Source: Capsulimonadaceae bacterium (GTDB lineage Bacteria > Armatimonadota > Armatimonadia > Armatimonadales > Capsulimonadaceae). Taken from it: DNA of 64,000 nt. The notes under the pieces are model-generated. The model did not search any database. It had not been told where the DNA came from and saw only the letters and a program-made list of their open reading frames with translations. The stretch spans positions 1,856,001 through 1,920,000 of the forward strand of contig OZ244065.1 of the NCBI GenBank assembly GCA_965215505.1, given 5' to 3'. Made by a program: the position numbers and the translations under genes. Shown here one piece after another: positions 6,483 through 22,903 of this stretch (position 1 is its first letter; each line of letters opens with the position of its first letter).

Positions 6483-7952
6483 ATGTCAAACCCCATCAAA
6501 CCACCCGTATTCATCGCCATCGTGGTGGCGGCCGTTCTTCTCGTCGGCCTGATCGGCTACAAACTCGTCGCGGCCGGCCACCCGCCCCTGCGAACAGATG
6601 CCGCTTCCCAAGAGTTGTATGCTTCATACGCAAAAGCGCGGGCGCAAAAGCTGGCAGGCGGCAAGGGGATGCCGCCGGCCCGACACACCCCTGAAACACT
6701 CCTGAGAACCATCACGATGAAGCACGGCACCCCGGTACTGGCGGCGGTCACATTCCTGCTCGGAGCGCTGGCCGCCGGGGGAGACGGCGGCACACCTCTC
6801 CCCCTGCTGCGGGCGAATTACCCGAAGATCGTCGCCATCGCCCCGCCCGGAGACTGTTTTTTCACCAAAATGCTCGATTTCCACGGCATCCCGATTAAAG
6901 CAAGCTCGGTCGTCTCAGATGAGGCCCTCGATGCGGCCTATGACCGGCTGGCACTCGAACTGGCACACCTCCCCGTAGTGACCGTCAACCTCGTGGCGGC
7001 GGGCGCGCAGCTCCAGATCATCGGCAAAGATCAGGTCACTTCGGACCTGCCGGAGTTCCGCGCCCTCAAGGGCAGACCCCTTCCGAAGTACAACGGCCTG
7101 ACCATTGGCCAAAGGACGCGCGGCATGGGCGGTCTGGAAACGTCCTGCGGGGAGGAGCACCTGCTGAAATTGGACAAAGACCGCTACCGGGGACGCGACA
7201 TCTGCCTGCACGAGTTCGCCCACTGCATCCGAGATCACGGCATACAGGCGGAGATCGTCGCCCGCGCCTGCCCCCCATCTCCGGCTCGGTATGCCTCCTA
7301 CCTCAGCGCCTGGGCATTGGTCAATTCCGGCACGCCGGAGTCGGGCTACGGCTACTGGTACCCCGGCCTGGAAAACGACGGTGGGGCGGGGGGCGGGTTC
7401 GAGCCGGCCCCGACCGGGACGACGTGGCTGGGCCAGCCACACCACCGCGGCTCCTGGTATTACTCCTGCGAGGAGAATCCCGGCTACTGCGGCGCATTGC
7501 GGACCGCCGCCACCATTCTGACGGATGACCCCATCTTCGGGCGATTCTGCTTCGGGGGCGACTGGCGCAGGACGACGGCGGGCCTGGAAGTCATCCCGAA
7601 GGACGGGCTGCGGAAGCGGTTCCATGCCCTGATCGGCGGCAGGCTGCACCTGGTCTCGGAAACGGATCGCTTTCCCGCCGGACGTCCCATCATCGTCCGG
7701 GAAACCCTCTCGGAGATTCGCTTCTCTCTGAAAAGCGATAACCCGGCACCGCACACCGCCGCCGTCCGCCTGTCGGGGCTGCCGCCGGGCGGATATGTCG
7801 TCAGTGCCGCCGACGGGAGCGGACTGACGGCGGAACAGGGCAAAACAAAGATCATCGCGGGCCAGGAAACCCTCCTGGGGCTGCCGATGGCCGGCAACGG
7901 CAGCCGGACGTTCCTGCTGAAGCGGCAGACAAGAGAAAGAGTTCCAAGTTGA
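6483..7952 (+). CDS. Chimeric ORF: small membrane protein + truncated HExxH zinc peptidase + C-terminal part of a DUF5695-like protein
   Basis: TM segment after ATG 6483 (GGAG SD); second signal-peptide-like start at 6717; HEFAH at 7209-7223; then YASYLSAWALVNSGTPESGYGYWYPG...DDPIFG. Confidence 0.55.
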   Translation: MSNPIKPPVFIAIVVAAVLLVGLIGYKLVAAGHPPLRTDAASQELYASYAKARAQKLAGGKGMPPARHTPETLLRTITMKHGTPVLAAVTFLLGALAAGGDGGTPLPLLRANYPKIVAIAPPGDCFFTKMLDFHGIPIKASSVVSDEALDAAYDRLALELAHLPVVTVNLVAAGAQLQIIGKDQVTSDLPEFRALKGRPLPKYNGLTIGQRTRGMGGLETSCGEEHLLKLDKDRYRGRDICLHEFAHCIRDHGIQAEIVARACPPSPARYASYLSAWALVNSGTPESGYGYWYPGLENDGGAGGGFEPAPTGTTWLGQPHHRGSWYYSCEENPGYCGALRTAATILTDDPIFGRFCFGGDWRRTTAGLEVIPKDGLRKRFHALIGGRLHLVSETDRFPAGRPIIVRETLSEIRFSLKSDNPAPHTAAVRLSGLPPGGYVVSAADGSGLTAEQGKTKIIAGQETLLGLPMAGNGSRTFLLKRQTRERVPS

Positions 7953-10723
7953 ACAAACAGAGGCAGGGAAATCGGGGAGTCTGGCTGATCGGGCTGGCGC
8001 TGTTTCTCCTCGCGCCCATCGTGTCGAGGGCGCAAGGGGATGGCCGGCCAAAACCCCCGGCAACGCTGGGGTTGGAGCAGGGCGTGATGACCATTGACAC
8101 GCCCGATTTCGCCCTCACGCTGGTCAAGGCGTCTCAGACGGTCGCTTCGCTCCAGCCGAAAGTCGGTCAGCCGAAAGGCGGCGCGGGTTTCGACTTCACA
8201 CCCACCGACCGGCTGCCGATCCGGTCCGGGGACGGCTTCTACCATCTGGGGGACCTGACCTTCCGCGCCCGCGTCGGCGGCACCGGCCCCTGGAAAGACT
8301 ACTCCACGGCCGCCGCCCGCCGCCCGATCTTGGCGCTGCCCCCCGCCGCCGGGGAGCTGGCCGCCGCCGACCTCGCCGCGACCCTGCCGGCGGACTGCCC
8401 CCTGCATGTCACCCGCACCTGGGCGCTGGAGAACGGCCGACTCGCGCTGCGCTTTGCCCTCCGGAACACGTCGGCGGGGACGATCCAGATCGGCGCGCTC
8501 GGCATCCCGATGGTCTTCAACAACATCATCAGCGACCGCACCTTGGAACAGGCGCATGCGGCCTGTTCGTTCTCCGACCCCTACATCGGGCAGGACGCGG
8601 GCTACCTCCAGGTGACGCGCCTGAGCGGCCACGGGCCGACACTCGTCGTCGTCCCAGACGGGAAGACGCCGTTTGAGGCGTACCGGCTGCTGAATGAACC
8701 GATGCGCCCGAACCAGACATTCGAAGGCATGTTCGCCTGGATGGTCCACACCCAGGCTTATGCCGAGAACGAATGGAAGGGGGCGAACCAGTGGAACCCG
8801 CCGACGCAGGCCGCGCTCGCGCCGGGGCAGGCCCGCACCTACGGCGTCAGGTTCCTCGTTTCCGGCGAGATTCGCGGCATCGACAGAACGCTGGCCGCCG
8901 ATCACCGCCCCCTGGCGATCGGCATCCCCGGTTATGTCCTGCCGATGGATCAGACGGGCAAGCTGTTTCTCAGGTATGCCTCCAGAGTGGCCTCGGTGGC
9001 CGTCGAGCCGGCGGGCGCGATCCGGTTCAGCCCCGGCAAGCCCACCCCGAACGGCTGGAAGAGTTACGACCTGCACGGCAGGACCTGGGGCCGGGCCAGG
9101 GTGACCGTGACCTATGCAGACGGTCTGGTGCAGGCGATCAGCTATAACGTGATTAAGCCCGAGGCGCAGGCGGTGGCCGATCTCGGGCACTTCCTGACGA
9201 CCAAACAGTGGTTCGATGACCCGAACGACCCCTTCCACCGCGCGCCCTCCGTGATCAGCTACGACCGGGAGGCCGACCGGCAGGTGACGCAGGACAGCCG
9301 TGTCTGGATCGCGGGCCTGGGGGACGAGGGCGGGTCCGGCTCGTTCGTGGCCGCCGCCATGAAGGAGTTCGGCCGGCCCGATGCGGTCGAAGTCGCCAAA
9401 TACTCGCAGTTCGTGGACAAGGTGCTGTGGGGCGTGATCCAGTACAAGGACGGTCCGAACAAGTACGGCGTCCGCAAGAGCGTGTTCTTCCACGACCCGG
9501 CGAAACTGCCGGACTTCCCCTATGATCCGGCCCTGGACTGGCGTTCGTGGACGAGCTGGAACAAAGAGGCTTCGGAGGACATTGGACGCGGCTACAACTA
9601 TCCCCATGTCGTCGCCGCCTACTGGGCGATGTACCGTGTGGCCCGAAACCATCCCGGTATGGTCACGGCCCGCCCCTGGCAGTGGTATCTGGAGCAGGCC
9701 TATCAGACGACTCACTTCATGTTCAGCCGGGACGCCCACGGGGACCGCCGGGTCGGCTATGTCGAGCTTGGGCTGATGGAGGGGGACGTGTTCCTGGCGA
9801 TGCTCAAGGACTTGCAGAACGAAGGCTGGACGGCGAAGGCGGCCGACGTCACCGCGCTGATGAAGGAGCGCGCCGACCGCTGGAGCCACGAAGCTTACCC
9901 GTTCGGCAGCGAAATGGCCTGGGACTCGACCGGCCAGGAAGAGGTCTACGCCTGGTGCAAATACTTCGGTTTTGAGGACAAAGCGGAGGTCTCCCTCAAC
10001 TCCATCCTCGGCTACATGCCGACCCTGCCGCACTGGGGCTACAACGGCAACGCGCGCCGCTACTGGGATTTCTTGTACGGCGGTAAGCTGCCCCGGATCG
10101 AGCGCCAGATCCACCACTACGGCTCCGGCCTTAACGCCATCCCGGTGCTGTCGGAGTACCGTTCGCACCCCGACGACTATCTGCTGCGGGTCGGCTACGG
10201 CGGGGTTTTAGGCCCGCTGACCAACATCGACCAGGGGGGGTTCGCCTCCGTGGCCTTCCACTCGTTCCCCTCGACTCTCAAGTGGGACGCTTACTCGGGC
10301 GATTACGGCCCGAACTTCTTCGGGCATGCGATGAACACGGCGACGTATCTCATTGACCACCCCGAGTTCGGCTGGCAGGCTTACGGCGGCAATGTCCAGA
10401 CGGACGACGGCTGGGTGAAGGTGCAGCCGCGCGACTCGTTCCGCACCCGCGTTTACATCGCGCCGCGCGGCCTGTGGCTGACTCTGGATGCCGGCACCTT
10501 CGAGAGCGTTGAGGTAAGCCGCCGGAGTCATACAGTGCGGGTGAGCCTGGCCCCGGCCGCGGCCTATACGCCGCAGGCGCTCCTGCATTTGGAACAGCCC
10601 GCGAAGATCGCCGGAGTCAAGACCTATCATCCGGTCGGTCAGCCTCTCCCCCAGTCACGAGGCGCTTATGTCGTTGGTTTGAAAACCAACGCAGTCTGGG
10701 TGACTCTGAACGACACTCCCTGA
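7949..10723 (+). CDS. Secreted DUF5695 family protein (putative glycoside hydrolase)
   Basis: Signal peptide; GIPMVFNN, WIAGLGDEGG, YNYPHV, YPFGSEMAWDSTGQE, PHWGYNGNARRYWDF, ERQIHHYGSGLN. Confidence 0.85.
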   Translation: MNKQRQGNRGVWLIGLALFLLAPIVSRAQGDGRPKPPATLGLEQGVMTIDTPDFALTLVKASQTVASLQPKVGQPKGGAGFDFTPTDRLPIRSGDGFYHLGDLTFRARVGGTGPWKDYSTAAARRPILALPPAAGELAAADLAATLPADCPLHVTRTWALENGRLALRFALRNTSAGTIQIGALGIPMVFNNIISDRTLEQAHAACSFSDPYIGQDAGYLQVTRLSGHGPTLVVVPDGKTPFEAYRLLNEPMRPNQTFEGMFAWMVHTQAYAENEWKGANQWNPPTQAALAPGQARTYGVRFLVSGEIRGIDRTLAADHRPLAIGIPGYVLPMDQTGKLFLRYASRVASVAVEPAGAIRFSPGKPTPNGWKSYDLHGRTWGRARVTVTYADGLVQAISYNVIKPEAQAVADLGHFLTTKQWFDDPNDPFHRAPSVISYDREADRQVTQDSRVWIAGLGDEGGSGSFVAAAMKEFGRPDAVEVAKYSQFVDKVLWGVIQYKDGPNKYGVRKSVFFHDPAKLPDFPYDPALDWRSWTSWNKEASEDIGRGYNYPHVVAAYWAMYRVARNHPGMVTARPWQWYLEQAYQTTHFMFSRDAHGDRRVGYVELGLMEGDVFLAMLKDLQNEGWTAKAADVTALMKERADRWSHEAYPFGSEMAWDSTGQEEVYAWCKYFGFEDKAEVSLNSILGYMPTLPHWGYNGNARRYWDFLYGGKLPRIERQIHHYGSGLNAIPVLSEYRSHPDDYLLRVGYGGVLGPLTNIDQGGFASVAFHSFPSTLKWDAYSGDYGPNFFGHAMNTATYLIDHPEFGWQAYGGNVQTDDGWVKVQPRDSFRTRVYIAPRGLWLTLDAGTFESVEVSRRSHTVRVSLAPAAAYTPQALLHLEQPAKIAGVKTYHPVGQPLPQSRGAYVVGLKTNAVWVTLNDTP

Positions 10724-11308: not shown

Positions 11309-12235
11309 CTAAATCCCTGCCAGCAGCGATCTTGACATCTTGCAGACCACCGTGTAGGCGGGGTCGAACACGTTCGCGACCTCGTATTCCACGCACTGCC
11401 CCAGCAGCGTATGCGCCCCCACCCAGTCCAGCCCGTAATCCTCCTGGAGCCAGCGGGCCATCTCGCTGGTCGCGTGCTGCAACGCCTGGTCCAGAGGGCG
11501 CGCGTTCCCCGCCGTCAGGAGGTGCGTCTCGGTCTCGGCGCGGGGCCACCCGATCGTCTTCCCCTTGATGACCGCGAGCGTGAACCGGACGTCGAACGAG
11601 ATCTCGATGCCGGTCCCACAGACCTCCCCGCACCCTTGCAGGGCGTGGCCGTCGCCCAGAAAGAACAAAGCGCCGGGGACGGCGACGGGGAAGAAGACCG
11701 TCACGCCCTCCACGAAGCCCTTGTAGTCCATGTTGCCGCCGTGGGTGGACGAAGTCGCCGTGGAGACCGCCTCCCCGCCCGGCGGGGCGACCCCGAAGCA
11801 GCCCACCATCGGGCGGACGGGGAGACTAAGGCGGCCCAGCCTCGTTTCGGGCGCGGTGAGGGTGGCCGTGCCCACCTCCATGTCCACGTCCCACTCGCCG
11901 CTGCCCTCGGCAAAGCCGGGCGGGGGCGGCAGCCGGGCCACGTCGGCGGGGTCCATGACATTCGAGGCGAGCTGGATGCCGCTCCAGCCGAAGCGGCGGT
12001 TGGGGCGCAGATGGTCCAGGCGGACGGCGAGCGTATCGCCCGGCTCCGCGCCTTCCACGAAGAAGGGGCCGGTCATGGGGTTGACGCCGGTGTGGCGGCG
12101 CTGGCGAGCGGCGTCGAAGCCGCGCGCGTCCACGGTGGTCGTCTCGACGGCGTCGCCGCCGGCGACGTGCAGCACGGGCGGATGGGTGCCGAGGGTGCTG
12201 AAGTAGTGGTCGGGCGTGAACAGGTGCGTGGTCAT
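11309..12235 (-). CDS. Acetamidase/formamidase family protein
   Basis: NPMTGPFFVEGAEPGD, HGGNMD, GDGHALQGCGEVCGTGIE. Confidence 0.88.
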   Translation of the reverse strand: MTTHLFTPDHYFSTLGTHPPVLHVAGGDAVETTTVDARGFDAARQRRHTGVNPMTGPFFVEGAEPGDTLAVRLDHLRPNRRFGWSGIQLASNVMDPADVARLPPPPGFAEGSGEWDVDMEVGTATLTAPETRLGRLSLPVRPMVGCFGVAPPGGEAVSTATSSTHGGNMDYKGFVEGVTVFFPVAVPGALFFLGDGHALQGCGEVCGTGIEISFDVRFTLAVIKGKTIGWPRAETETHLLTAGNARPLDQALQHATSEMARWLQEDYGLDWVGAHTLLGQCVEYEVANVFDPAYTVVCKMSRSLLAGI

Positions 12236-12287
12236 GCGTCCTCGTCCTTCTCCGTCGGGATCGTCTGTCAGGGGCTTGTCCCGGCTG

Positions 12288-13121
12288 CTATTTGCTTCCC
12301 GCCGCGATCTCGGCGTCCACGACGGCCTGCCCTTCGGAGTGCAGCAGACCGTAGACCTGGGCGCGGATCTGGAAGAACTCGGGCGTCGTCCGCAGGGCGG
12401 CGTCGCGGTCCGGCCCGAACGGCACGGTGATCTCGGCTTTCAGCCGTCCGGGCCGGGCCGTCATCACGAAGATGCGGTCGCTGAGGAAGACGGCCTCGTC
12501 AATGTCGTGGGTGATGAAGAGCGTCGTCGTGCGCTCGGCCCGGCGGATGTCCAGGAGAAGCTCCTGCATGACCGTCCGCGTCTGGGCGTCTAAAGCGCCG
12601 AACGGCTCATCCATCAGGAGGATGCGCGGGGAATTGGCGAGGGCGCGGGCGATGGCGACGCGCTGGCGCATCCCGCCGGAAAGCTGCTTGGGGTAGTGGT
12701 CGCGGAACCCGTGCAGGCCCACGGCGTCCAGGAAGTGGTCGGCCAATCGCTCGCGCTCGGCCCGCTTGACGCCGCGCTGCTTGGGGCCGAACTGGACGTT
12801 CCCGCGCACGGTCAGCCAGGGGAACAGGGTGTAGGCCTGGAAGACCATGCCGCGCTCGGCACCCGGCCCGAACACCTCCTTGCCGTCGAGCAGCACCCGG
12901 CCCCCGGTCGGCGTCGTCAGGCCGCCGACGATGTGCAGCAGGGTTGACTTGCCGCAGCCGGACGGGCCGACGATGCTGACCAATTCGCTGACGCCGATCG
13001 TCAGTGAGGTCGGCTCTAAAACCGTCAGAAGGCCGTCCTTGGTCGGGTAGTCTTTGGACAGCCCTTCCAGGCGCAGGATCGGGTCCGGCAGAAAATCCGG
13101 CATCAGCCCCTCTGCCATCAA
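12288..13121 (-). CDS. ABC transporter ATP-binding protein, NitT/TauT family
   Basis: GPSGCGKST, LSGGMRQR, LLMDEPFGALD. Confidence 0.95.
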   Translation of the reverse strand: MMAEGLMPDFLPDPILRLEGLSKDYPTKDGLLTVLEPTSLTIGVSELVSIVGPSGCGKSTLLHIVGGLTTPTGGRVLLDGKEVFGPGAERGMVFQAYTLFPWLTVRGNVQFGPKQRGVKRAERERLADHFLDAVGLHGFRDHYPKQLSGGMRQRVAIARALANSPRILLMDEPFGALDAQTRTVMQELLLDIRRAERTTTLFITHDIDEAVFLSDRIFVMTARPGRLKAEITVPFGPDRDAALRTTPEFFQIRAQVYGLLHSEGQAVVDAEIAAGSK

Positions 13122-13975
13122 CCCCTCTGCGCTTCCGCCCAGGGCAGCAGGCGCGGCTGGGCGATCTTGAACACCATGTCGGTCGCAAGACCCAGCAGGC
13201 CGAGGATGAAGATGCCGACGAAGATCTCGTCGGCCCGCGAGAACCGCTGCGCCTTCATGATCGAGTACCCGAGGCCGGAAGAGGTCGCGACGACCTCGGC
13301 GATGACGAGGTACGTCCAGGCCCAGCCGATCATCGTCCGGCAGGTGTCCAGGATGCCCGGCAGGGTGGCAGGCAGGAGGACGTTGAAGAGGACCTGCGTC
13401 CGGCTCGAACCCAGTGTCCGGGCGGCGTTGAGCAGGTCTTTGGGCACCTGCCGGGTGACGTCGGCCACGACCAGCACCATTTGGAAATAGGTGCCGAGGA
13501 AGATCAGCAGGATCTTCGCCGGCTCGTCAATCCCCGCGACCACCATCACGAGTGGAATCAGGGCCGGGACGGGGACGTAGCGGACGAAGCCGACGAACGG
13601 CTCGTGGGCCGCCTCGGCGCACTTGTAGGCACCCATCAGGATGCCCAAGGGGACGGCAAGGACGGCGGAGAGCAGGAAGCCGATGCCGATGCGCGTCACG
13701 CTGATCTTGATGTCCGGCAGGAGATCACCACTCTGGTACATCTCGACGGCGGCCTGGAACATGTGTGTCGGGGTGGGCAGGATGAGCGCGTTCGCCCGGC
13801 CCGAGTAGGTCAGGACGCACCACAGGATGACCGGGACGAGGAACGAGGCGGCGGCGATGGCGAGGTACGCGCCGCGCGGGATGTCCTCACCGAGCTGGAA
13901 CAGGCCCGGCCCGCGCCGCCGAATGGGCGGTGCGGGCTGGGTTTCTTCTCGTCGTAACTGCTGGGCGGTCGCCAT
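13118..13975 (-). CDS. ABC transporter permease, NitT/TauT family
   Basis: Several TM helices; RYVP, AARTLG EAA-like loop, AWTYLVIAE..SSGLG. Confidence 0.92.
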   Translation of the reverse strand: MATAQQLRREETQPAPPIRRRGPGLFQLGEDIPRGAYLAIAAASFLVPVILWCVLTYSGRANALILPTPTHMFQAAVEMYQSGDLLPDIKISVTRIGIGFLLSAVLAVPLGILMGAYKCAEAAHEPFVGFVRYVPVPALIPLVMVVAGIDEPAKILLIFLGTYFQMVLVVADVTRQVPKDLLNAARTLGSSRTQVLFNVLLPATLPGILDTCRTMIGWAWTYLVIAEVVATSSGLGYSIMKAQRFSRADEIFVGIFILGLLGLATDMVFKIAQPRLLPWAEAQRG

Positions 13976-13988
13976 TTAAACCACCTCC

Positions 13989-15098
13989 CTAGTCCACCTT
14001 GAGCGTGTAGTCGTAGGGCGGCTTCTTGCCCTCGCCCTTCTTGACGGCGGCGTTGATAAAGGTCGGGTCAATGGCCGAGGCGTAGTCGGGCAGCTTGGGG
14101 ATCTGCTTCTGGGCCAGCAGGAACTGCGTGATTGAGGGGCCGCTGCTGAACAGCGAGGTCGGCTTGGCGCTCTGGGTGAAAGCCGCCTGCGCTTCGGGGC
14201 CGCTGAAGATGCGTGTCCCCTTGATGAAGCTCTGGTAGAAGGCGATCTGCTGGGCGGGCGTGCCGGGGTCCTTGGCAGTCTCGGCCATGATCTTGACGGC
14301 GTCGTCGGGGTGCGCGCGCCACCAGTCCAGCGAGTCGTACCAGGCGTCCACGATGCCCTGGACGTCCTGCGGGCGGGCGGTGATGACCTTGCCCTGGAAG
14401 ACCAGCAGGTCAGGGATCTGGCCGGGCAGGGAGCGGCTGTCGAAGATCACATGGGAGCCGGGCAGCTTCGCCAGGAGCTGGCTCTTGTTCGGCTCCCACA
14501 CCGCGACCGCGTCCACCTGCTTTGAGATCATCGCGCCGGGGCAGTCCTGGACCTTGATGGGGACATAGGTGATGTCCTTCTCGGTCATGCCATTGGCGGC
14601 CAGCGCCTTGTCGAGCAGGAACTGCTCCACCGTCCCCAACTCGGTCGCGACCTTTTTGCCCTTCAAGTCCTCCATGGAGTGGACGCCCGGCCCGGCGACC
14701 ACGGCGTCATTGCCCGCCGAGTTGTCGTTGATCAGGACGGCCTTAGCGGATTGCCCCTGGGCGAGCGGCCCCATGGTGTCGCTCCAGGTCTGACAGTTGG
14801 CGTCCACCTGGTTGGCGGCGAAGGCGTTCAGCGAGTCGGTGTAGTTGGGGAACCAGACCAGCTTGACGTTGACGTTGTGCTTCTTGAAAAAGCCCTGCTT
14901 GTCGGCGATGGCCCAGGCCGTCCAGCCCGGCCAGTCCGAATAGCCGATGGTGATCGCCCCGCCCGCGTCCGCCGCCGCGCCGGGCGTGGAAGAGGCCGTC
15001 GGGGAGGCGGGCGCGGAGGCGTTCTGCTTGGGACCACAGCCGGTAAGCGCCAGGGCAGCCAGTGCGGAACCGGCAAGAAGACAACGGGGAAAACGCAT
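13989..15098 (-). CDS. ABC transporter substrate-binding lipoprotein (SsuA/NMT1-like; type seen in urea-carboxylase loci)
   Basis: Lipobox LTGC; GYSDWPGW, NDNSAGND, WEP, IPDLL; SD AAGGAG. Confidence 0.88.
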   Translation of the reverse strand: MRFPRCLLAGSALAALALTGCGPKQNASAPASPTASSTPGAAADAGGAITIGYSDWPGWTAWAIADKQGFFKKHNVNVKLVWFPNYTDSLNAFAANQVDANCQTWSDTMGPLAQGQSAKAVLINDNSAGNDAVVAGPGVHSMEDLKGKKVATELGTVEQFLLDKALAANGMTEKDITYVPIKVQDCPGAMISKQVDAVAVWEPNKSQLLAKLPGSHVIFDSRSLPGQIPDLLVFQGKVITARPQDVQGIVDAWYDSLDWWRAHPDDAVKIMAETAKDPGTPAQQIAFYQSFIKGTRIFSGPEAQAAFTQSAKPTSLFSSGPSITQFLLAQKQIPKLPDYASAIDPTFINAAVKKGEGKKPPYDYTLKVD

Positions 15099-15223
15099 GA
15101 GAACGCTCCTTTTCTAAGTCGCAGGGCGGAACGCCGTGCCGGAATGGAAAAGAGCGCCATGCTCTGGGGGGCCGCATCGCTGAGGCCGGGGAAGCAGAGG
15201 TGTCTCGTCGTCGAGGCAGTGTG

Positions 15224-15252
15224 AGTATACAGGCTTTAGGAGGGATTGTCAA
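15224..15252 (-). promoter_or_regulatory. Sigma70-type promoter of the ABC/amidase operon
   Basis: TTGACA-17bp-TATACT on the minus strand. Confidence 0.8.
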
Positions 15253-15278
15253 GCCTCCGTAAACTTTCTGGCCGCTCT

Positions 15279-15325
15279 GTGACGTGATTCGGTCACTTCG
15301 GTGCTATAATGACGAAAAGCGTCAT
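15279..15325. promoter_or_regulatory. Paired operator sites overlapping the extended -10 (TGcTATAAT) of the Lrp/AsnC gene
   Basis: ATGACG-AAAAG-CGTCAT at 15309-15325 and weaker GTGACG.. site starting 30 bp earlier at 15279. Confidence 0.65.
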
Positions 15326-15342
15326 CAATCAGGGGAAATGGC

Positions 15343-15843
15343 ATGGCAAGCGTCACGGGCGAAGACACGTCGGGGGAGACGGCGATCCGGCTAGACACGC
15401 TGGATCACAAGATCATTGCCGTATTGCAGGAAAATGCGCGTCTGACTAATGCCGAGGTCGCAGGGCAGGTCGGCAGCACCGAACCGACGGTGCGACGCCG
15501 CGTGGACCGGCTTTTGGAGAACCAGGTCATCAAGATCGTCGCGGTCGCGCCGCCATTCCCGCTGGGCTATCATGTCGTCGCCATCCTCGGCATCCAGATC
15601 GACCACAGCCGGTTGGACGAGATCCAGGAGGCTCTGCTGGCGATGCCCGAGATCCGGTTCGCCGGCGTCACGTTGGGCAGTTACGATGTGGTCACGGAAG
15701 TCTGGTTCCACAGCAACAGTGAACTGCTGGCGTTCCTGCATGAACGCTTGAGCAAGATCCCCGGCATCCAGCGCATCGAGTCGCTTCAAGTGGTGAAGAT
15801 GATCAAGTACGCCTACGACTGGGGAGTGCAGCCCTCGGCTTGA
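15343..15843 (+). CDS. Lrp/AsnC family transcriptional regulator
   Basis: LDTLDHKIIAVLQENARLTNAEVA...TVRRRVDRL HTH; GSYD motif; IPGIQRIES. Confidence 0.93.
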   Translation: MASVTGEDTSGETAIRLDTLDHKIIAVLQENARLTNAEVAGQVGSTEPTVRRRVDRLLENQVIKIVAVAPPFPLGYHVVAILGIQIDHSRLDEIQEALLAMPEIRFAGVTLGSYDVVTEVWFHSNSELLAFLHERLSKIPGIQRIESLQVVKMIKYAYDWGVQPSA

Positions 15844-15871
15844 AGCGTTCAGCGCCATACCTGAGCCGATT

Positions 15872-15918
15872 ATGACGCTTTTCGTCAATCAAGGCCGCGA
15901 TGGTATGGTTTTCGTCAT
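15872..15918. promoter_or_regulatory. Paired operator sites upstream of the cgdAB-uca-atzF promoter
   Basis: ATGACG-CTTTT-CGTCAA at 15872-15888 and GGTATG-GTTTT-CGTCAT at 15902-15918, 30 bp apart. Confidence 0.65.
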
Positions 15919-15945
15919 ACACGGGCGCTCTAGGCAAATCGAGAC

Positions 15946-15974
15946 TTGACAACGCCCCGGCCCGTCAGTATACT
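15946..15974 (+). promoter_or_regulatory. Sigma70-type promoter of the carboxylase operon
   Basis: TTGACA-17bp-TATACT. Confidence 0.8.
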
Positions 15975-16119
15975 GTCATCGGCTCTACGACGAGCCTCGG
16001 CATCCGCGTCGGCATCGTCGCCCCCGCTTTTCCTATCCCGACTGTTCCCAGACGAATTCCGAGACGAGTGAATGAATTTACTCGTCCTGTTCACCTGACT
16101 CCCGTTGAGGAAAACCCGC

Positions 16120-16833
16120 GTGGCAGACGACGTCCTGGTCGAAGAAACCTTACAGCCGGGCGCGGCCTGGTCGCACATCCTAAAGCGCGGCACGGCCCTC
16201 CGCCTGACCGATGTTGAGGGCGGGGCGAACGTCGGCGCGATCTTTTACAACGCTGACTGCTCCGTCGAACGGCTCAATATCCCGGACACGCTGAAGGCCC
16301 AGCACGTCGCAAGGCTGACACAAGGCCTGGTTCTGTACTCGGACATGGGCCGCATCCTCTGCTCGCTCACTGCCGACAGCGCGGGCTGGCATGACGCGCT
16401 GGGTGGGTGCATGGACGCAGCCGCCGTCGAGGCCAAGTACGGCGAGGCGCGCTACCAGGAGTGCCGCAACGACTTCCATCGGAACGCCCGCGACGGTTTC
16501 CTGATAGAACTCGAAAAGCACGGCTTGGGGCCGCGCGACCTGTCCCCCAACATGAACTTCTTCAGCAAAGTCGCCGTGGGCGATGACGGGGCGATGGCCT
16601 ACACACAGGGGCATTCAAAGCCGGGCGGCTTCGTAGAGCTGCGGGCCGAGATGAACGTCCTCCTCATCCTTAACTCGTGCCCCCACCCGCTCGACCCCAG
16701 CCCGCGCTACGCCCCGAAGCTGGTGCGCCTGTCCGTGCGGCGCGTCCCGCCGCCCGCCGCCGATGATGCCTGCCGCGTCTCGCGCCCCGAGAACGGGCGC
16801 GGCTTTGCCCTGACGGAGAGGTACTTCCTATGA
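16120..16833 (+). CDS. cgdA: Urea amidolyase-associated protein UAAP1 (carboxyguanidine deiminase subunit, DUF1989)
   Basis: [50 protein letters not shown] 16120 after GAGG. Confidence 0.88.
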
Positions 16834-17489
16834 GCGGCTTCATTCTGACGCACAGCGCGCTCGACCCCGCCGACGCGGCCTACAGCGCGGTCATCCCGGC
16901 AGGCGAGTCGTGGATTTATCCCATCACAAGGGGCCAGACGTTTCGCATTGTGGACCTGGAAGGCAACCAGGCCGTGGACACGCTCTTTTATGATGCCGCC
17001 GACCATGCGGACCGCTACGACTTCCAGAACACGATCCGCGCACAGGGCAACATCTATCTGACGACCGGGTCGCGCCTGATGTCAAGCAAGGGGAACGTCC
17101 TGCTGACCATCGTCGCCGACACCTGCGGGCGGCATGATACATTGGGCGGGGCGTGCGCGACCGAGAGCAACCAGGTCCGCTATGCCTTGGACAAAGGCCA
17201 CATGCACGCCTGCCGCCAGAGCTTCCTGTCGGCGCTGCTGAGGTATGACAATGGCCTGGGGAAGCGGGACATCCCCAATAATATTAACTTCTTCATGAAC
17301 GTCCCGGTCACGCCCGAGGGCGGGCTGACGTTCGAGGACGGCATCTCGGAGGCCGGGAAGTACGTCGAGATGCGCGCCGAACGGGACGTGCTTGGTCTGA
17401 TCAGCAACTGCCCACAGCTTAACAACCCGTGCAACGCCTACAACCCGACGCCGGTTCAGGTTTTGATCTGGGACGCCCATGTTTCGTAA
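16830..17489 (+). CDS. cgdB: Urea amidolyase-associated protein UAAP2 (carboxyguanidine deiminase subunit, DUF1989)
   Basis: [48 protein letters not shown]. Confidence 0.9.
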
Positions 17490-20400
17490 GGTACTGATCG
17501 CCAACCGGGGTGCCATTGCCTGCCGGATCATCCGCACACTGCGGACACTGGGCATAGGGTCGGTCGCCGTCTACTCCGACGCCGACTGCCACTCCCTGCA
17601 CGTCTCGCAGGCGGACGAGGCGGTTTGCATCGGGCCGGCCCCGGCAGCACAGAGCTACCTGTCTATCGAGGCGATCTTGCAGGCCGCCCGCCGAACCGGG
17701 GCGGAGGCGATCCATCCGGGATATGGTTTCCTGAGCGAGAAGCCGGAGTTCGCCGACGCCTGCGAGGCATCGGGGATCGAATTCATCGGCCCGACGGGGG
17801 CGCAGATGCGGGCATTCGCCCTGAAACACGCCGCCCGCGCGACGGCTGAAGGGTTGGGCGTCCCCCTGCTGCCGGGGACGGGCCTGCTGCGCGGTCTGCC
17901 GGAGGCGCGGGCGGCGGCCCAGAGCATCGGCTACCCGCTGATGCTGAAAAGCACGGCGGGCGGCGGCGGCATCGGCATCCGCCTGTGCAATGGCCCCGAA
18001 GAACTAGATGAAGCCTGGGACGCCGTGCAGCGCCAGGGGGAGGCCAGTTTCGGCGACGGCGGCGCGTTCCTGGAACGCTTCATCGCGCGGGCGCGGCACA
18101 TCGAAGTGCAGATATTCGGCGATGGGAAGGGCGGGGTCGTTGCCCTAGGCGAGCGGGACTGCTCGGCCCAGCGCCGGAACCAGAAGGTGATCGAGGAGAC
18201 GCCCGCGCCCGGCATCTCGCCCGAGACCCGTGCCCGGCTGTGCGCCTCCGCCGTGCGTCTGGGCGAGGCAGTTCAGTACCGCTCGGCGGGGACCGTCGAG
18301 TTCGTCTACGACGAAGCGGCGGGCGAGTTCTACTTCCTGGAGGTCAACACGCGCCTCCAAGTGGAACACGGCGTCACCGAGGAAGTGACCGGCATTGACT
18401 TGGTGGCGTGGATGGTGCTGCAAGCCTCCGGCGACCTGCCGCCGCTTTCGTCTTTTACCATCAGCCCACGGGGCCACTCGTTCGAGGCCCGGATCTATGC
18501 CGAGGACGCCGGGCGCGGCTTCCAGCCGAGCATCGGCCGCCTGACGCACGTCCGATTTCCCGACACGGCGCGGGTGGAAACGTGGGTCGAGGCGGGGACG
18601 GAGATCACCCCTTATTACGACCCGATGGTCGCCAAGCTGATCGTGCATGGCGCGGACCGGCCGCAGGCTTTGGCTGCCCTGCGAGATGCGCTGGGCCGGA
18701 CGCAGCTTGCGGGCATCGAAACCAATCTGGATTATCTTCGCAAGTTCTGCGTTGCGCCCGCGTTTGCCGAAGGCGCGGTCATGACTTCATTCCTCTCCCG
18801 GTTTCCCTATCAGCGCACGGCCATAGAAGTCATCGCGGGCGGGACGCAGACGACGGTGCAGGACACGCCGGGGCGGCTGGGATATTGGAACGTCGGCGTG
18901 CCGCCGTCAGGTCCGATGGACGGCCTGGCCCTACGGCTGGCGAACCGTCTGGTCGGAAATGAGGCGGGAGCGGCGGGCCTGGAGATGGCGGTGAGCGGCC
19001 CGACCTTGCGCTTCGGCTGCGAGGCGGTCATCGCGCTGGTCGGCGCACCGATGGAGGCGACATTGGACGGTGAACCCGTCCCCTTCCGGCAGGCGGTCCG
19101 CGTGGCGGCGGGCGCAACTCTGAAGATCGGCATCGCGAACGGACCGGGCCTGCGGGCCTACCTTGCGGTCGGCGGCGGGCTGGAAGTCGGCGAGTATCTG
19201 GGCAGCCTCAGCACGTTCATGCTGGGCGGCTTCGGGGGGCATGACGGGCGCGCGCTGCGCCCCGGCGATGTCGTCCACCTCAAAACACCGGGCGCGGGCA
19301 TGGACCGGGTGGGAACGGCGCTGCCGCCGGCCCTGACGCCGGCCTACACGGATGCCTGGCGCATCGGCGTCCTGTACGGGCCGCACGGGTCGCCCGACTT
19401 CTTCCGGGACGACGACATCGCCATGATCTTCGGCACCGACTGGAAGGTGCATCACCAGTCGGACCGGACCGGCATCCGGCTGATCGGCCCGAAGCCGCAA
19501 TGGGCCAGGCTTGACGGCGGCGAGGCGGGCCTGCACCCATCCAATATCCACGACAATGCCTACGCCATTGGGACGGTGGACTTCACCGGCGACATGCCCA
19601 TCTTGCTCGGCCCGGATGGTCCCAGCCTGGGCGGCTTCGTCTGCCCCGCGACAATCATCCACGCGGAGCTATGGAAGATGGGCCAGCTCCGGCCCGGCGA
19701 CACGGTGCGCTTCCAGGCCGTGACGGCGGCCCAGGCAGACGACATGGCGCGGCAGCTCGACGAAGCCGTCGCCTCGCTCCGGTCCCCTCTGCCCTCGCTG
19801 CCCCCGCCCGTCGTTCAGCCGCCCGAGCCGGCGATCCTCGCTTCTCGTCCGGCCACGGAGAATGCGCCAACAGTCGTCACGCGCGCCGACGGGGACCGCT
19901 CCCTGCTGGTGGAGTTCGGGCCGAACGTGTTAGACCTGTCCCTGCGCCTCCGGGTCCACGCGCTGGAGGCCACGCTCCGCGCGATGCATCTGCCGGGCAT
20001 CGTTGACATCACGGCGGGAGTTCGCAGCCTGCAAGTGCATTACGACACGAGCCGTCTCCCGCGCGAGGCGCTTCTGGAAGCCTTGCGGGCGGCGGAGCAG
20101 GCGATACCCGCTGACCTGGACATCACGGTGCCGTCGCGCACCCTGCACCTCCCGCTGTCGTGGGACGACCCGCAGACGCGGCTGGCGGCGGAGAAGTACA
20201 TGCAGACGGTCCGCCCCGATGCGCCCTGGTGCCCGGACAACATCGAGTTCATCCGCCGCATCAACGGGCTAGGCTCGGTGGACGACGTGCAGAAGATCAT
20301 CTTCGATGCAGGTTATCTCGTGCTGGGCCTGGGCGACGTTTACCTCGGGGCGCCCGTGGCGACGCCCACGGACCCCCGGCACCGGCTGGTCACGACCAAG

Positions 20401-21090
20401 TACAACCCCGCGCGCACCTGGACGCCGCAGAACGCTGTCGGCATCGGCGGCGCGTACATGTGCATCTACGGCATGGAGGGGCCGGGCGGCTATCAGCTCT
20501 TCGGGCGGACCACGCAGGTCTGGAATACTTTCAAAAGTACGCGGGAGTTCGAGCCGGGGACGCCGTGGCTGCTGCGCCCCTTCGACCGAATACGGTTCTA
20601 TCCCGTCAGCGCCGCCGAGCTGCTGGAGATGCGCGACGCTTTCCCGCACGGCGAAATGTCCTTGGCGATCGAGCCGGGCGAGTTCAGTTACCGCGAGTAT
20701 CTGGCGTTCCTGGACTCGATCAAGGACGAGGCGGAGGTCAGCCGGGCGCGTCAGCGGGAGGCGTTTGAGGCCGAGCGCGCCCGCTGGGCCGAGGCGGGGC
20801 AGACAGCAGGATTTGACGCTGAACAGGGCGACGCCGGCCCGCTGGCAGGTGGCGAGATACCGGAGGGCTGCGAGGCAGTGCCCTCCCCAATGACGTCGAG
20901 CGTCTGGAAGGTCCTGGTGGAGCCGGGGCAGCGCGTCGGCGCGGGCGAGACGCTGCTGGTGCTGTCGGCCATGAAGGTCGAGTGGGCGGTGACTGCTCCC
21001 AGTGAGGGCATCATTGAGGAAGTGCTGGCGCGGCCTGACGCGCTCGTGATGCACGGGCAGGCCCTCGTCATCCTGCGGACTGGAGACTGA
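17479..21090 (+). CDS. uca: Urea/guanidine carboxylase (biotin carboxylase + carboxyltransferase + biotin carrier)
   Basis: [51 protein letters not shown], biotinylation motif AMKV. Confidence 0.95.
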
Positions 21091-21091
21091 C

Positions 21092-22903
21092 TTGGACACT
21101 CTCAGGCTGGACCTGACCGCCCTGCGCGCGGCTTATGATTGCGGCGAGACGCCCGCCTCGGTTCTGGACCAGGTGTATGCACGCATCGAGGGGGCTGACC
21201 TGAACCCGGTCTGGATCTCACTCGTACCCCGCGAGACGGTGATGGCGCGGGCCGCAGAGATCATGCGCGGCGACCGGGCGACGCTTCCACTCTACGGCGT
21301 CCCGTTCGCCGTCAAGGACAACATGGACGTGGCCGGAATGGAGACGACGGCGGCCTGCCCCGCATTCGCCTACACCGCCGAAGAGACGGCGACGGTCGTA
21401 AAGCGCTTGGAAGAGGCGGGGGCGATCCTCGTCGGTAAAACGAACATGGACCAGTTCGCGACGGGTCTGGTCGGGGTGCGATCCCCTTATGGGGCCTGTT
21501 CCAGCGTCTTCGACGACCGCTGCGTCTCGGGCGGGTCGAGTTCCGGGTCGGCGGTGGCCGTCGCGAGCGGGCTGGTCAGTTTTGCGCTCGGCACAGACAC
21601 CGCCGGGTCAGGGCGCGTCCCCGCCGCCCTCAACAATCTGGTCGGCCTGAAGCCGACGCGCGGCAGCCTCAGCGCAAGCGGCGTCGTCCCGGCCTGCCGC
21701 TCGCTCGACTGCGTCTCGATCTTCGCGCTGACGGCGGACGATGCCGGTCAGGTCTTCGAGGCGGCGCGCGGCTTCGACGCAGCCGACCCCTACTCCCGCC
21801 GGTCGGCAGGCGAGGATGCCCCGTCCCCCTGGCTCGGCGGCCCGTTCCGCTTCGGCGTACCCCACCAAGAGCAGTGGGAGTTCTTCGGCGACGGCGAGGC
21901 AAAGGAGCTGTACGAAGCCTCTATTCGTGCCCTGGAGGCGCTGGGCGGCGTCGCCGTGCCGTTCGACTTTGGCCCGTTCCAGGAGGCCGTCGCGCTGCTC
22001 TACTCCGGCCCCTGGGTGGCCGAGCGCCAAGCCGCACTGGGGGAGTTTTTCGCCGCACACGCCGAGGACGTTCACCCGGTCGTGCGCGGCATCATCGCGG
22101 GCGGCGCGAAGTTCAGCGCCGCCGACGGCTTCCTCGCCCAGTACCGTTTGGAAGAGCTGCGGCGGCGGACGGACGCGGTCTGGGAGGCATCGGACCTGCT
22201 GCTGATGCCCACGACGGGGACGACGTACACGCTGGCGGAAGTCGAGGCCGAGCCGGTGCGGCTGAACACGAACCTGGGCCATTACACCAACTTCGTCAAC
22301 CTGCTCGACCTGGCCGCCGTCGCGCTGCCCGCCGGGTTCCGCCCGGATGGCCTGCCGTTCGGCGTTTCGCTCATCGGGCGGGCGCGCACGGACCGGGCGC
22401 TGCTGTCGGTCGCCGACCGGCTGCACCGGCACTCGGGAGGCATAGTCGGCGGCCTCACGACATTGCTGGCCGAAACCGCGCCCTTGACGCCGCCGCTCGC
22501 GCCGCCGGGATGCACTTTGCTGGCGGTCGTCGGCGCGCACCTGACCGGGCAGCCCTTGAACCGGCAGTTGACGGAGCGCGGGGCGCGGCTGTCGGCGACT
22601 ACGAAGACCGCGAGCGGCTACCGGCTGTACGCGCTGCCCGACACGACCCCGGCGAAGCCCGGCCTGGTGCGCGCCCCCGGCTTCGAGGGTGCGGGCATCG
22701 AGGTGGAGGTCTGGGCCATTGCGACTTCCCACTTCGGCAGTTTCGTCGCCGCCATCCCCGCGCCGCTCGGCATCGGCAGCGTGGAACTGGCGGGCGGGGC
22801 GGTCGTGAAGGGGTTCGTCTGCGAGCCGTTCGCGGTGGCATCGGCGACCGAGATCACGCATTTCGGCGGGTGGCGGGCTTATCTCGCCTCCGCTCGGGCA
22901 TGA
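21092..22903 (+). CDS. atzF: Allophanate hydrolase
   Basis: Amidase signature VKDNMD, GGSSSGSA, GTDTAGSGRVPA; C-terminal VVGAHL...GFVCE domain. Confidence 0.95.
   Translation: MDTLRLDLTALRAAYDCGETPASVLDQVYARIEGADLNPVWISLVPRETVMARAAEIMRGDRATLPLYGVPFAVKDNMDVAGMETTAACPAFAYTAEETATVVKRLEEAGAILVGKTNMDQFATGLVGVRSPYGACSSVFDDRCVSGGSSSGSAVAVASGLVSFALGTDTAGSGRVPAALNNLVGLKPTRGSLSASGVVPACRSLDCVSIFALTADDAGQVFEAARGFDAADPYSRRSAGEDAPSPWLGGPFRFGVPHQEQWEFFGDGEAKELYEASIRALEALGGVAVPFDFGPFQEAVALLYSGPWVAERQAALGEFFAAHAEDVHPVVRGIIAGGAKFSAADGFLAQYRLEELRRRTDAVWEASDLLLMPTTGTTYTLAEVEAEPVRLNTNLGHYTNFVNLLDLAAVALPAGFRPDGLPFGVSLIGRARTDRALLSVADRLHRHSGGIVGGLTTLLAETAPLTPPLAPPGCTLLAVVGAHLTGQPLNRQLTERGARLSATTKTASGYRLYALPDTTPAKPGLVRAPGFEGAGIEVEVWAIATSHFGSFVAAIPAPLGIGSVELAGGAVVKGFVCEPFAVASATEITHFGGWRAYLASARA

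Follow-up and report, generated by a model that had tools for sequence, protein, structure and literature searches.

The window analyzed here, the whole stretch of 64,000 nucleotides from positions 1,856,001 to 1,920,000 of contig OZ244065.1 (Capsulimonadaceae bacterium, assembly GCA_965215505.1), carries a gene for a 166-amino-acid regulator of the Lrp/AsnC family, which was identified by its domain matches (15343–15843, + strand) and which lies between two outward-facing operons. On the left, the ABC operon (11309–15098, − strand) encodes, according to family matches, an NMT1/SsuA-type binding protein, a permease, an ATPase, and an FmdA/AmdA-like protein. On the right, the carboxylase operon (16105–22903, + strand) encodes UAAP1 and UAAP2 (the DUF1989 pair), a urea/guanidine carboxylase, and an allophanate hydrolase; the NCBIfam cut-offs for UAAP1, UAAP2, urea carboxylase, and allophanate hydrolase are exceeded by all four. 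The regulator gene sits between mirror-image sets of predicted operators, one for the uptake (ABC) operon and one for the breakdown (carboxylase) operon, and both operons begin with leader RNAs that contain conserved hairpins. These operators and leaders are the subject of this work.

The combination of an ABC importer, a DUF1989 pair, a carboxylase, and an allophanate hydrolase is presented in part of a 2025 review as the guanidine carboxylase pathway (PMC12186494). The same part of that review places guanidine carboxylase operons usually under guanidine-I or -II riboswitches, and it distinguishes the carboxylases by an active-site residue, which is Asp for guanidine and Asn for urea (PMC12186494). 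In the present genome, the DUF1989 pair and the existence of a separate urease/urt system favor a guanidine pathway over a urea-specific one, as judged from gene content.

Promoters and Predicted Operators

The preliminary description of this locus had claimed two outward TTGACA-17-TATACT promoters at 15224–15252 and 15946–15974, each with a weak site 26–27 bp upstream of its −35 element and a strong palindrome exactly 30 bp further out, in the same orientation relative to each promoter. Both promoters are found at these positions. The ABC operon promoter (15224–15252, − strand) has its −35 TTGACA at 15252–15247 and, after a 17-nt spacer, its −10 TATACT at 15229–15224; the carboxylase operon promoter (15946–15974, + strand) has the same elements at 15946–15951 and 15969–15974, again with a 17-nt spacer. 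Each matches the consensus at 11 of 12 positions, and the 1.4-kb region contains two such promoters, as compared to 0.2 ± 0.4 in 50 shuffled versions. The regulator appears to have its own promoter with a putative extended −10 element (TGcTATAAT, 15302–15310, + strand; TG at 15302–15303, TATAAT at 15305–15310), and this TGnTATAAT is located 33 nt 5′ of the regulator ATG at 15343. Genome-wide (66.5% G+C), TTGACA-N17-TATAAT occurs 60 times and TTGACA-N17-TATACT 39 times, although by a rough estimate chance would produce far fewer than one of either; this genome therefore makes heavy use of perfect sigma-70 consensus promoters.

The two palindromes are located exactly as had been claimed. The left full operator, ATGACGAAAAGCGTCAT, occupies 15309–15325, and the right one, ATGACGCTTTTCGTCAA, occupies 15872–15888; they form a 16-nt inverted pair that is 100% complementary and, read in the same sense, they are identical at 16 of 17 positions. 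The left palindrome overlaps the TATAAT at 15305–15310 as well as the predicted start site of the regulator, in agreement with the earlier claim that one site covers the regulator's own −10. The weak promoter-proximal sites are also present, with measured distances of 27 nt (left) and 28 nt (right) from the −35 elements. The left half-site spans 15280–15296, with its TGACG at 15280–15284 being 27 nt from the ABC −35; its A-tract is degenerate in this genome (TGACGTGATT...GTCAC), and orthologues read TGACG(C/T)AAAA. The right half-site, TTTTCGTCA (15909–15917), is 28 nt from the carboxylase −35. The distance between each half-site and the matching pentamer of its palindrome is exactly 30 bp, and on the right this distance separates the half-site from the same nonamer, TTTTCGTCA, inside the palindrome. 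The repeated unit is a direct repeat of TTTTCGTCA read toward each promoter, the distal copy of which is completed to a 15-bp palindrome.

These features go beyond chance. In the 6.18-Mb genome, TGACG-N5-CGTCA with an AAAAG/CTTTT spacer occurs only in these two places, and pairs of TTTTCGTCA on one strand within 120 bp are likewise found nowhere else. The other two TGACG-N5-CGTCA palindromes with A/T-rich spacers in the genome lie in G+C-rich DNA under long open frames and were set aside as chance occurrences. A CGTCA-N7-GTCA over the carboxylase −10 was considered as a further operator and rejected since it is not kept in orthologues.

Conservation of the Locus and of Its Regulatory Sites

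The comparison covered relatives labeled Armatimonadota/Capsulimonadaceae, among them 23 genomes of the same genus, which together with the present one make up 24 genus genomes; pooling the genus loci with public contigs gave 25 distinct loci. Regulator orthologues that are 78–90% identical are present in 16 of the 23 same-genus genomes. The same 16 all have at least two DUF1989 (cgdAB-type) matches, and the pair is found in none of the other seven.

The layout of palindrome and half-site, with its 30-bp phasing, is kept across the orthologous loci. Upstream of the regulator, two exact TGACG pentamers exactly 30 bp apart are seen in 21 of the 25 distinct loci. In these 21, the distal TGACG abuts the regulator −10 and is, in most, 33–34 nt before the ATG, and in orthologues a TAnAAT directly adjoins the TGACG. 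The proximal TGACG is 26–29 bp from the ABC −35 in 16 of the 21; the exceptions are at 38, 16, 6, and 6 bp, with one not determined. Downstream of the regulator, the comparison was made for 14 loci in which a second promoter occurs at most 140 bp from the regulator stop codon. Exact CGTCA pairs 30 bp apart, at −62/−63 and −32/−33 from the −35, are present in 8 of these 14 regions, and in the remaining loci either an exact copy is paired with a degenerate one or the arrangement is shifted. The ABC promoter hexamers are invariant across 23 aligned orthologous upstream regions, as is the carboxylase promoter across 14. Both intergenic alignments are conserved only at the promoter hexamers, the half-sites, and the regulator −10 with its palindrome, the rest being variable. 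The exact sequence TGACGAAAANCGTCA has 14 matches in the 24 genus genomes, 12 of them at the regulator locus and 2 in long open reading frames; none occurs in the seven genus genomes that lack the regulator. The two copies away from the locus, inside open reading frames of 650 and 716 amino acids, were treated as chance. Taken together, the sites look functional, and we refer to them as predicted operators.

Several individual loci depart from the common arrangement. One (L013, G019:C7:133498-134720) appears decayed, with an in-frame TAG in the regulator match and fragmentary DUF1989 genes containing a stop; its downstream operator and −35 region are deleted, and the sequence runs ...CGTCACTTGTATACT. 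Another genome (G015) has TGA stops in one DUF1989 match. In L012 (G008), an insertion about 300 bp after the regulator stop separates the regulator from the carboxylase promoter; with its inverted and direct repeats nested in one another, it looks like a miniature mobile element, and the left palindrome of this locus is degenerate. Gene content varies as well. In G002 (L075:1603-3053), the first genes behind the carboxylase-side promoter and leader are those for an isochorismatase-family hydrolase and a second NMT1-like protein, and the layout is similar in the loci of G009, G011, and G005; the extra genes add ~2.5–2.7 kb before the DUF1989 pair. The additional isochorismatase-family and NMT1-like genes hint at a wider substrate range, perhaps including biuret- or triuret-like compounds. 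In the window itself, a gene for a 924-amino-acid DUF5695 protein (E = 0; 7949–10723, + strand) converges on the end of the ABC operon, and an open reading frame of 894 amino acids opposite to it, without a family match, is probably spurious.

The Regulator Protein

The assignment of the gene between the promoters to the Lrp/AsnC family, which had been proposed, is borne out by profile searches. These find an AsnC-type helix-turn-helix (HTH) domain at the N-terminus (PF13404, 2.1e-15) and a RAM domain (AsnC_trans_reg) at the C-terminus (PF01037, 2.9e-14); with both family domains present, the 166-amino-acid protein is clearly an Lrp/AsnC (FFRP) transcription regulator. The best matches of solved structure are archaeal FFRPs (7fby; PH0140, 9w4v; FL11/PH1519, 1ri7/2e1c; LrpA, 1i1g), with E values from 8.6e-23 to 4.3e-12 over nearly the full length. 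Because this relationship is distant and no NCBIfam equivalog cut-off is reached by the regulator, ligand and site specificity are not transferable from these structures. Homologues in a collection of 5.8 billion proteins bear only generic Lrp/AsnC names.

Lrp/AsnC proteins form dimers that assemble into higher oligomers, and they bind A/T-centered palindromes of ~13–15 bp that are often phased and include their own promoter. A four-copy model of the regulator scored 0.65, compared with 0.00 for the best of three controls, with contact agreement of at least 66% and partner pLDDT of at least 79 in the four-copy runs. In calibration, 20 of 30 proteins solved as one-chain pairs reach the mark applied, as does 1 of the 23 whose structures are single chains. 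Self-association is supported by this modeling, although the pass may only mirror likeness to solved Lrp/AsnC oligomers.

Leader RNAs

The preliminary description had set the operators in place of a guanidine riboswitch, having recognized no ykkC-type motif. As far as known riboswitches are concerned, the claim stands. An Rfam scan (4227 families) of 13500–17500 returned only two noise matches at E 5–10 and no riboswitch, and nothing in the whole 64-kb window reached the gathering score. Guanidine-I (RF00442) was found in 0 of 41 related genomes, and Guanidine-II (RF01068) has no match in this genome; nor has Guanidine-III (RF01763), for which the search was weak, its control having rung nowhere. 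The absence of a known guanidine riboswitch at the locus is confirmed. What had been overlooked are conserved RNA hairpins and an anti-Shine–Dalgarno tract in both leaders.

Both leaders are ~120–145 nt long. In the carboxylase leader, a first hairpin, P1 (CUC-UACGAC-GAG, 15983–15994, + strand), starts 8 nt after the −10 element. A second, P2 (GGC-AUCGUC-GCC, 16011–16022), is followed by CCCGC-UUUU-CC (16011–16033 in all, + strand), and the U-tract is predicted to pair with the Shine–Dalgarno region near 16108–16114. The ABC leader carries a P1 (CUC-GACGAC-GAG, 15204–15215, − strand), a second hexaloop hairpin (GGCCUC-AGCGAU-GCGGCC, 15170–15187, − strand), and the 13-mer GAGCAUGGCGCUC followed by UUUUCC (15146–15164, − strand), which is predicted to pair with the Shine–Dalgarno sequence and start codon (15096–15115). 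The general form of P1 is a 12-nt element, CUC-NNNGNN-GAG, that begins 8 nt after each −10.

P1 accompanies 37 of 38 promoter instances in the 25 loci, with an identical offset in 35 of the 37. All 32 unique P1 sequences have G at loop position 4, and at position 1 they vary (A 20, G 7, U 5). Each of the three stem pairs is maintained in 29–32 of the 32, with the five variants all retaining RNA pairing (3 U-A, 2 U-G), and a fourth pair is formed in only about half. The pattern TTGACA-N16-18-TATACT-N6-9-CTYNNNGNNRAG gives 30 matches in 17 of the 24 genus genomes, compared to 0 for a reversed control, and these 17 are exactly the regulator-bearing genomes. In a scan of metagenomes with the pattern, 18 of 30 stretches lacked a −35 at the right distance and were treated as chance.

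Of the 30 genus matches, 29 are at the guanidine locus and one is at the porin-urtABCDE-ure operon of the present genome. This third promoter, P1, and P2 leader (G000:C1:4487649-4490705) lies outside the window, directly 3′ of a UreG/HypB-like gene and before a BBP2 porin, urtABCDE, and ureF; it is without TGACG operator sites, and at this operon it was not found in the other genus genomes with the pattern used. Since the urt operon has P1 without TGACG sites, P1 is independent of the Lrp/AsnC operators.

In most carboxylase-type leaders, as in the urt leader, GGC-ANNGNC-GCC follows 15–31 nt after P1 and leads into CCCGC and a short U-tract; four carboxylase loci have a short leader with P1 only. 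Overall, 20 distinct leaders, as well as the long ABC leaders, have a second hexaloop hairpin. The P2 loop always has A1 and always G4; A1 is partly imposed by the search pattern and G4 is imposed by it, though G4 also holds in the genus leaders. In the ABC leaders, the 13-mer GAGCAUGGCGCUC fits GAGCA[UC]GG[CU]GCUC in 17 of 17 genus sequences and is identical in 15, with a single substitution in L006 and in L009. RNAalifold predicts the anti-Shine–Dalgarno/anti-AUG helix in these leaders. For the carboxylase leader, z against shuffled sequences is −2.28, and in the minimum-energy fold the U-tract is again paired with the Shine–Dalgarno sequence.

Proposed Regulation of the Guanidine Locus

From the observed sequence, conservation, and co-occurrence with the regulator, we infer how binding, ligand, sign of regulation, and RNA mechanism may fit together. 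It is probable, on the comparative evidence, that the Lrp/AsnC protein regulates the guanidine-assimilation locus and that a second, independent RNA layer acts with it. Within a single oligomer, one dimer would sit on the palindrome and another on the half-site, both on the same DNA face. The regulator would repress itself through the left palindrome, which is expected because this palindrome covers its −10 and start site. The ABC-transporter and carboxylase operons would be co-regulated by a small molecule related to the pathway, since sites center near −70 and −100 of both promoters. The effector could be guanidine, the carboxylated intermediate, or an amino acid that signals nitrogen status. 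The divergent layout, which is of the AsnC/BkdR type, gives a slight lean toward ligand-dependent activation, with repression by wrapping about equally likely; near-consensus promoters combined with sites at −70 and −100 would be compatible with either sign of regulation. In the RNA layer, P1, the second hairpin, and the C-UUUUCC tract would sequester the ribosome-binding site in both mRNAs, and these leader elements may hold the step at which the inducer is sensed.

A number of observations weigh against this account. Sites at −70 and −100 do not alone occlude RNA polymerase, and promoters with 11 of 12 consensus positions in all orthologues would be unusual for activator-dependent ones; consensus promoters in every orthologue, together with ~100 perfect promoters genome-wide, point to negative or post-initiation control. 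The downstream sites are shifted in a few loci (by ~18 bp toward the −35 in L002, with L014 and L032 also deviating), which argues against a strict helical-face requirement. When one mismatch is allowed, the palindrome pattern and its reversed control occur about equally often genome-wide, and only exact or contextual matches are therefore informative. On the RNA side, the ABC leader folds no better than shuffled sequences (z = −1.11, with 28 of 200 shuffles equal or better), and the anti-Shine–Dalgarno helix is without two-sided covariation; because its pairs change one-sidedly only, it is conservation and thermodynamics that support it, and not covariation.

The leader hairpins would most likely be read by one of two REC-ANTAR response regulators, the genes for which are found in this genome. 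One of these genes is near a GAF-GAF-HisKA_2 kinase, resembling a PdtaS/PdtaR pair. The other (G000:C1:454298-456030, L116) is immediately upstream of a BBP2 (OmpL-like) porin in most genus genomes, and in the present genome it has a TTGACA-17-TATACT promoter upstream, with no P1. As set out in part of one study, an ANTAR target is a pair of hairpins, each with a stem of 3 bp or more and a hexaloop containing A1 and G4, the second hairpin overlapping a terminator, and ANTAR regulons typically comprise nitrogen genes, including urea transporters (PMC3369931). According to a section of the report on the EutV–RNA structure, a flipped G4 makes the only base-specific contact, all others involve the backbone of the three closing pairs, and the minimal ANTAR site is one hexaloop (PMC8934654). 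P1 conserves three pairs and G4, and its pattern therefore matches this description of the contacts.

Other features fit an ANTAR target less well. Both REC-ANTAR genes are core, being present in 24 of 24 genus genomes with or without the guanidine locus, and A1 is absent from 12 of the 32 unique P1 sequences. The P1–P2 linkers of 15–31 nt compare with 5–12 nt in E. faecalis eut. No canonical intrinsic terminator was found to overlap P2, the short U-tracts being predicted to pair with the Shine–Dalgarno sequence instead, and neither the promoter with P1 nor the P2 motif was found upstream of the ANTAR-adjacent porins (22 loci). On the sequence features considered, recognition of the leader hairpins as ANTAR antiterminator-type targets is the best though incomplete fit, and we put it at roughly an even chance.

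Alternatively, the regulator could be a feast/famine sensor of amino acid or nitrogen status that shuts the locus when nitrogen is plentiful, leaving induction to the leader RNA. Characterized Lrp/AsnC effectors are amino acids, and archaeal FFRPs, among them PH0140 and FL11/PH1519, are the closest solved relatives of the protein. Promoters this near to the consensus suggest negative control, and the leaders are predicted to be off by default, with the Shine–Dalgarno sequence sequestered. The regulator, however, is strictly associated with the pathway genes (16 of 16 genomes with the DUF1989 pair, 0 of 7 without), and no other non-coding exact sites are found in the genus, a pattern typical of pathway-specific regulators. 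The effectors of such regulators are usually the substrate or an intermediate. We consider a feast/famine role possible but on the whole doubtful.

The leaders invite a further explanation, namely that two 3-bp hexaloop hairpins, with loop pairing or an alternative helix, and an anti-Shine–Dalgarno tract constitute an undescribed cis-acting riboswitch for guanidine, urea, or a relative, which would take the place of the protein as substrate sensor while existing alongside it. Positions 4–6 of the P1 loop are complementary to positions 4–6 of the P2 loop, and the central pair forms in 16 of the 20 distinct leaders, metagenomic ones included (A-U 12, G-C 2, U-A 1, G-U 1). RNAalifold finds the same helix as part of a 9-bp pairing of the 3′ half of P1 with the 5′ half of P2, and in 11 of the 20 no more than 2.5 kcal/mol separates the fold with P1 and P2 from the one containing this alternative helix. 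Loop–loop contacts are also used by Guanidine-II and -IV riboswitches, as parts of two publications describe (PMC8373139, PMC11611296). In addition, the promoter and P1 are limited to the guanidine locus and one urea operon, and so track the locus and not the core ANTAR genes. Against this, the central loop pair is mismatched in 4 of the 20 leaders, the ABC leaders and the four short carboxylase leaders have P1 without a complementary partner loop, and only ~24 nt are conserved, with no match in Rfam. Because all examples come from one family-level clade, the leaders contain few independent changes, which also counts against a riboswitch. We judge such a switch unlikely; if it existed, this lineage would have replaced ykkC-type riboswitches by a new RNA sensor together with a protein sensor.

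Somewhat less likely again is that P1 acts as DNA, with CTC-N6-GAG (about +2 to +13) being the operator of a second repressor that binds over the transcription start. Its nearly fixed offset from the −10 (35 of 37), the palindromic form CTC-NN-CG-NN-GAG, and three-base arms that hardly vary would suit an operator. The conservation is asymmetric, however, with loop G4 present in 32 of 32 sequences and its symmetry mate C3 in only 22; moreover, the five stem variants include no A-C or C-A and all keep RNA pairing, and hexaloops with A1 and G4 recur in the second hairpins. Finally, it is very improbable that a different transcription factor binds the palindromes or that they are repeats of chance or relic origin, for although one-mismatch copies are common in these genomes, the 30-bp phasing is exact in 21 of 25 loci, the conservation resembles a footprint, the sites always abut the regulator −10, and exact copies are absent from genomes without the regulator.

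Comparison with Known Systems

Part of the 2025 review holds that riboswitches alone are known as receptors for guanidine besides transporters and enzymes, and that guanidine-binding transcription factors are still to be found (PMC12186494). Among the papers listed by a full-text search of the literature from 2021 on, none has a title on a guanidine-sensing or guanidine-responsive protein regulator, and no paper was found in which urea/guanidine carboxylase operons are linked to Lrp/AsnC or ANTAR. Should guanidine or carboxyguanidine be the effector, the pathway would have its first protein sensor acting on transcription, which might also serve as a biosensor part; should it be an amino acid, the locus would amount to a feast/famine circuit of the usual kind. 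With the leader hairpins would come a further case of ANTAR-type control, specific to this lineage, or, with lower probability, a new RNA switch. A 166-amino-acid regulator with defined 15-bp sites, next to a canonical guanidine gene set without a known riboswitch, makes a concrete and inexpensive test case.

Local Lrp/AsnC regulators that are divergent from their targets include AsnC-asnA of E. coli and, in Pseudomonas putida, BkdR-bkd and PutR-putA. The present system resembles these in having a small protein with HTH and RAM domains and predicted sites that are 15-bp palindromes with an A/T-rich center, one over the regulator's own promoter and further ones upstream of the divergent target promoter. 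It differs in that the operator module is repeated in mirror image 3′ of the regulator for a second, co-directional operon, and in that the pathway is that of a guanidine/urea carboxylase, for which the effector need not be an amino acid. The archaeal FFRPs are its best solved matches, yet they are distant.

Among ANTAR targets (EutV, NasR, AmiR), the likenesses are short hexaloop hairpins of at least 3 bp, an invariant G4, A1 in every P2 and most P1 loops, an association with nitrogen genes, and the presence of REC-ANTAR genes in the genome. Unlike these targets, the leaders here lack A1 in 12 of 32 P1 sequences and have longer linkers, no evident overlapping terminator, and a platform that looks translational (anti-Shine–Dalgarno), with P1 at the extreme 5′ end and with a conserved stem sequence. 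The carboxylase operons of Proteobacteria with guanidine-I/-II riboswitches have, by the part of the review that treats them, the same gene content as this locus (PMC12186494); here, in contrast, we find a protein regulator with predicted operators and a different leader RNA, with no Guanidine-I/-II/-III match. This lineage appears to use a protein and an RNA element where many bacteria use guanidine riboswitches. The architecture is that of an ordinary Lrp/AsnC local circuit; what is new is the pathway controlled and the pairing of the circuit with hexaloop leaders.

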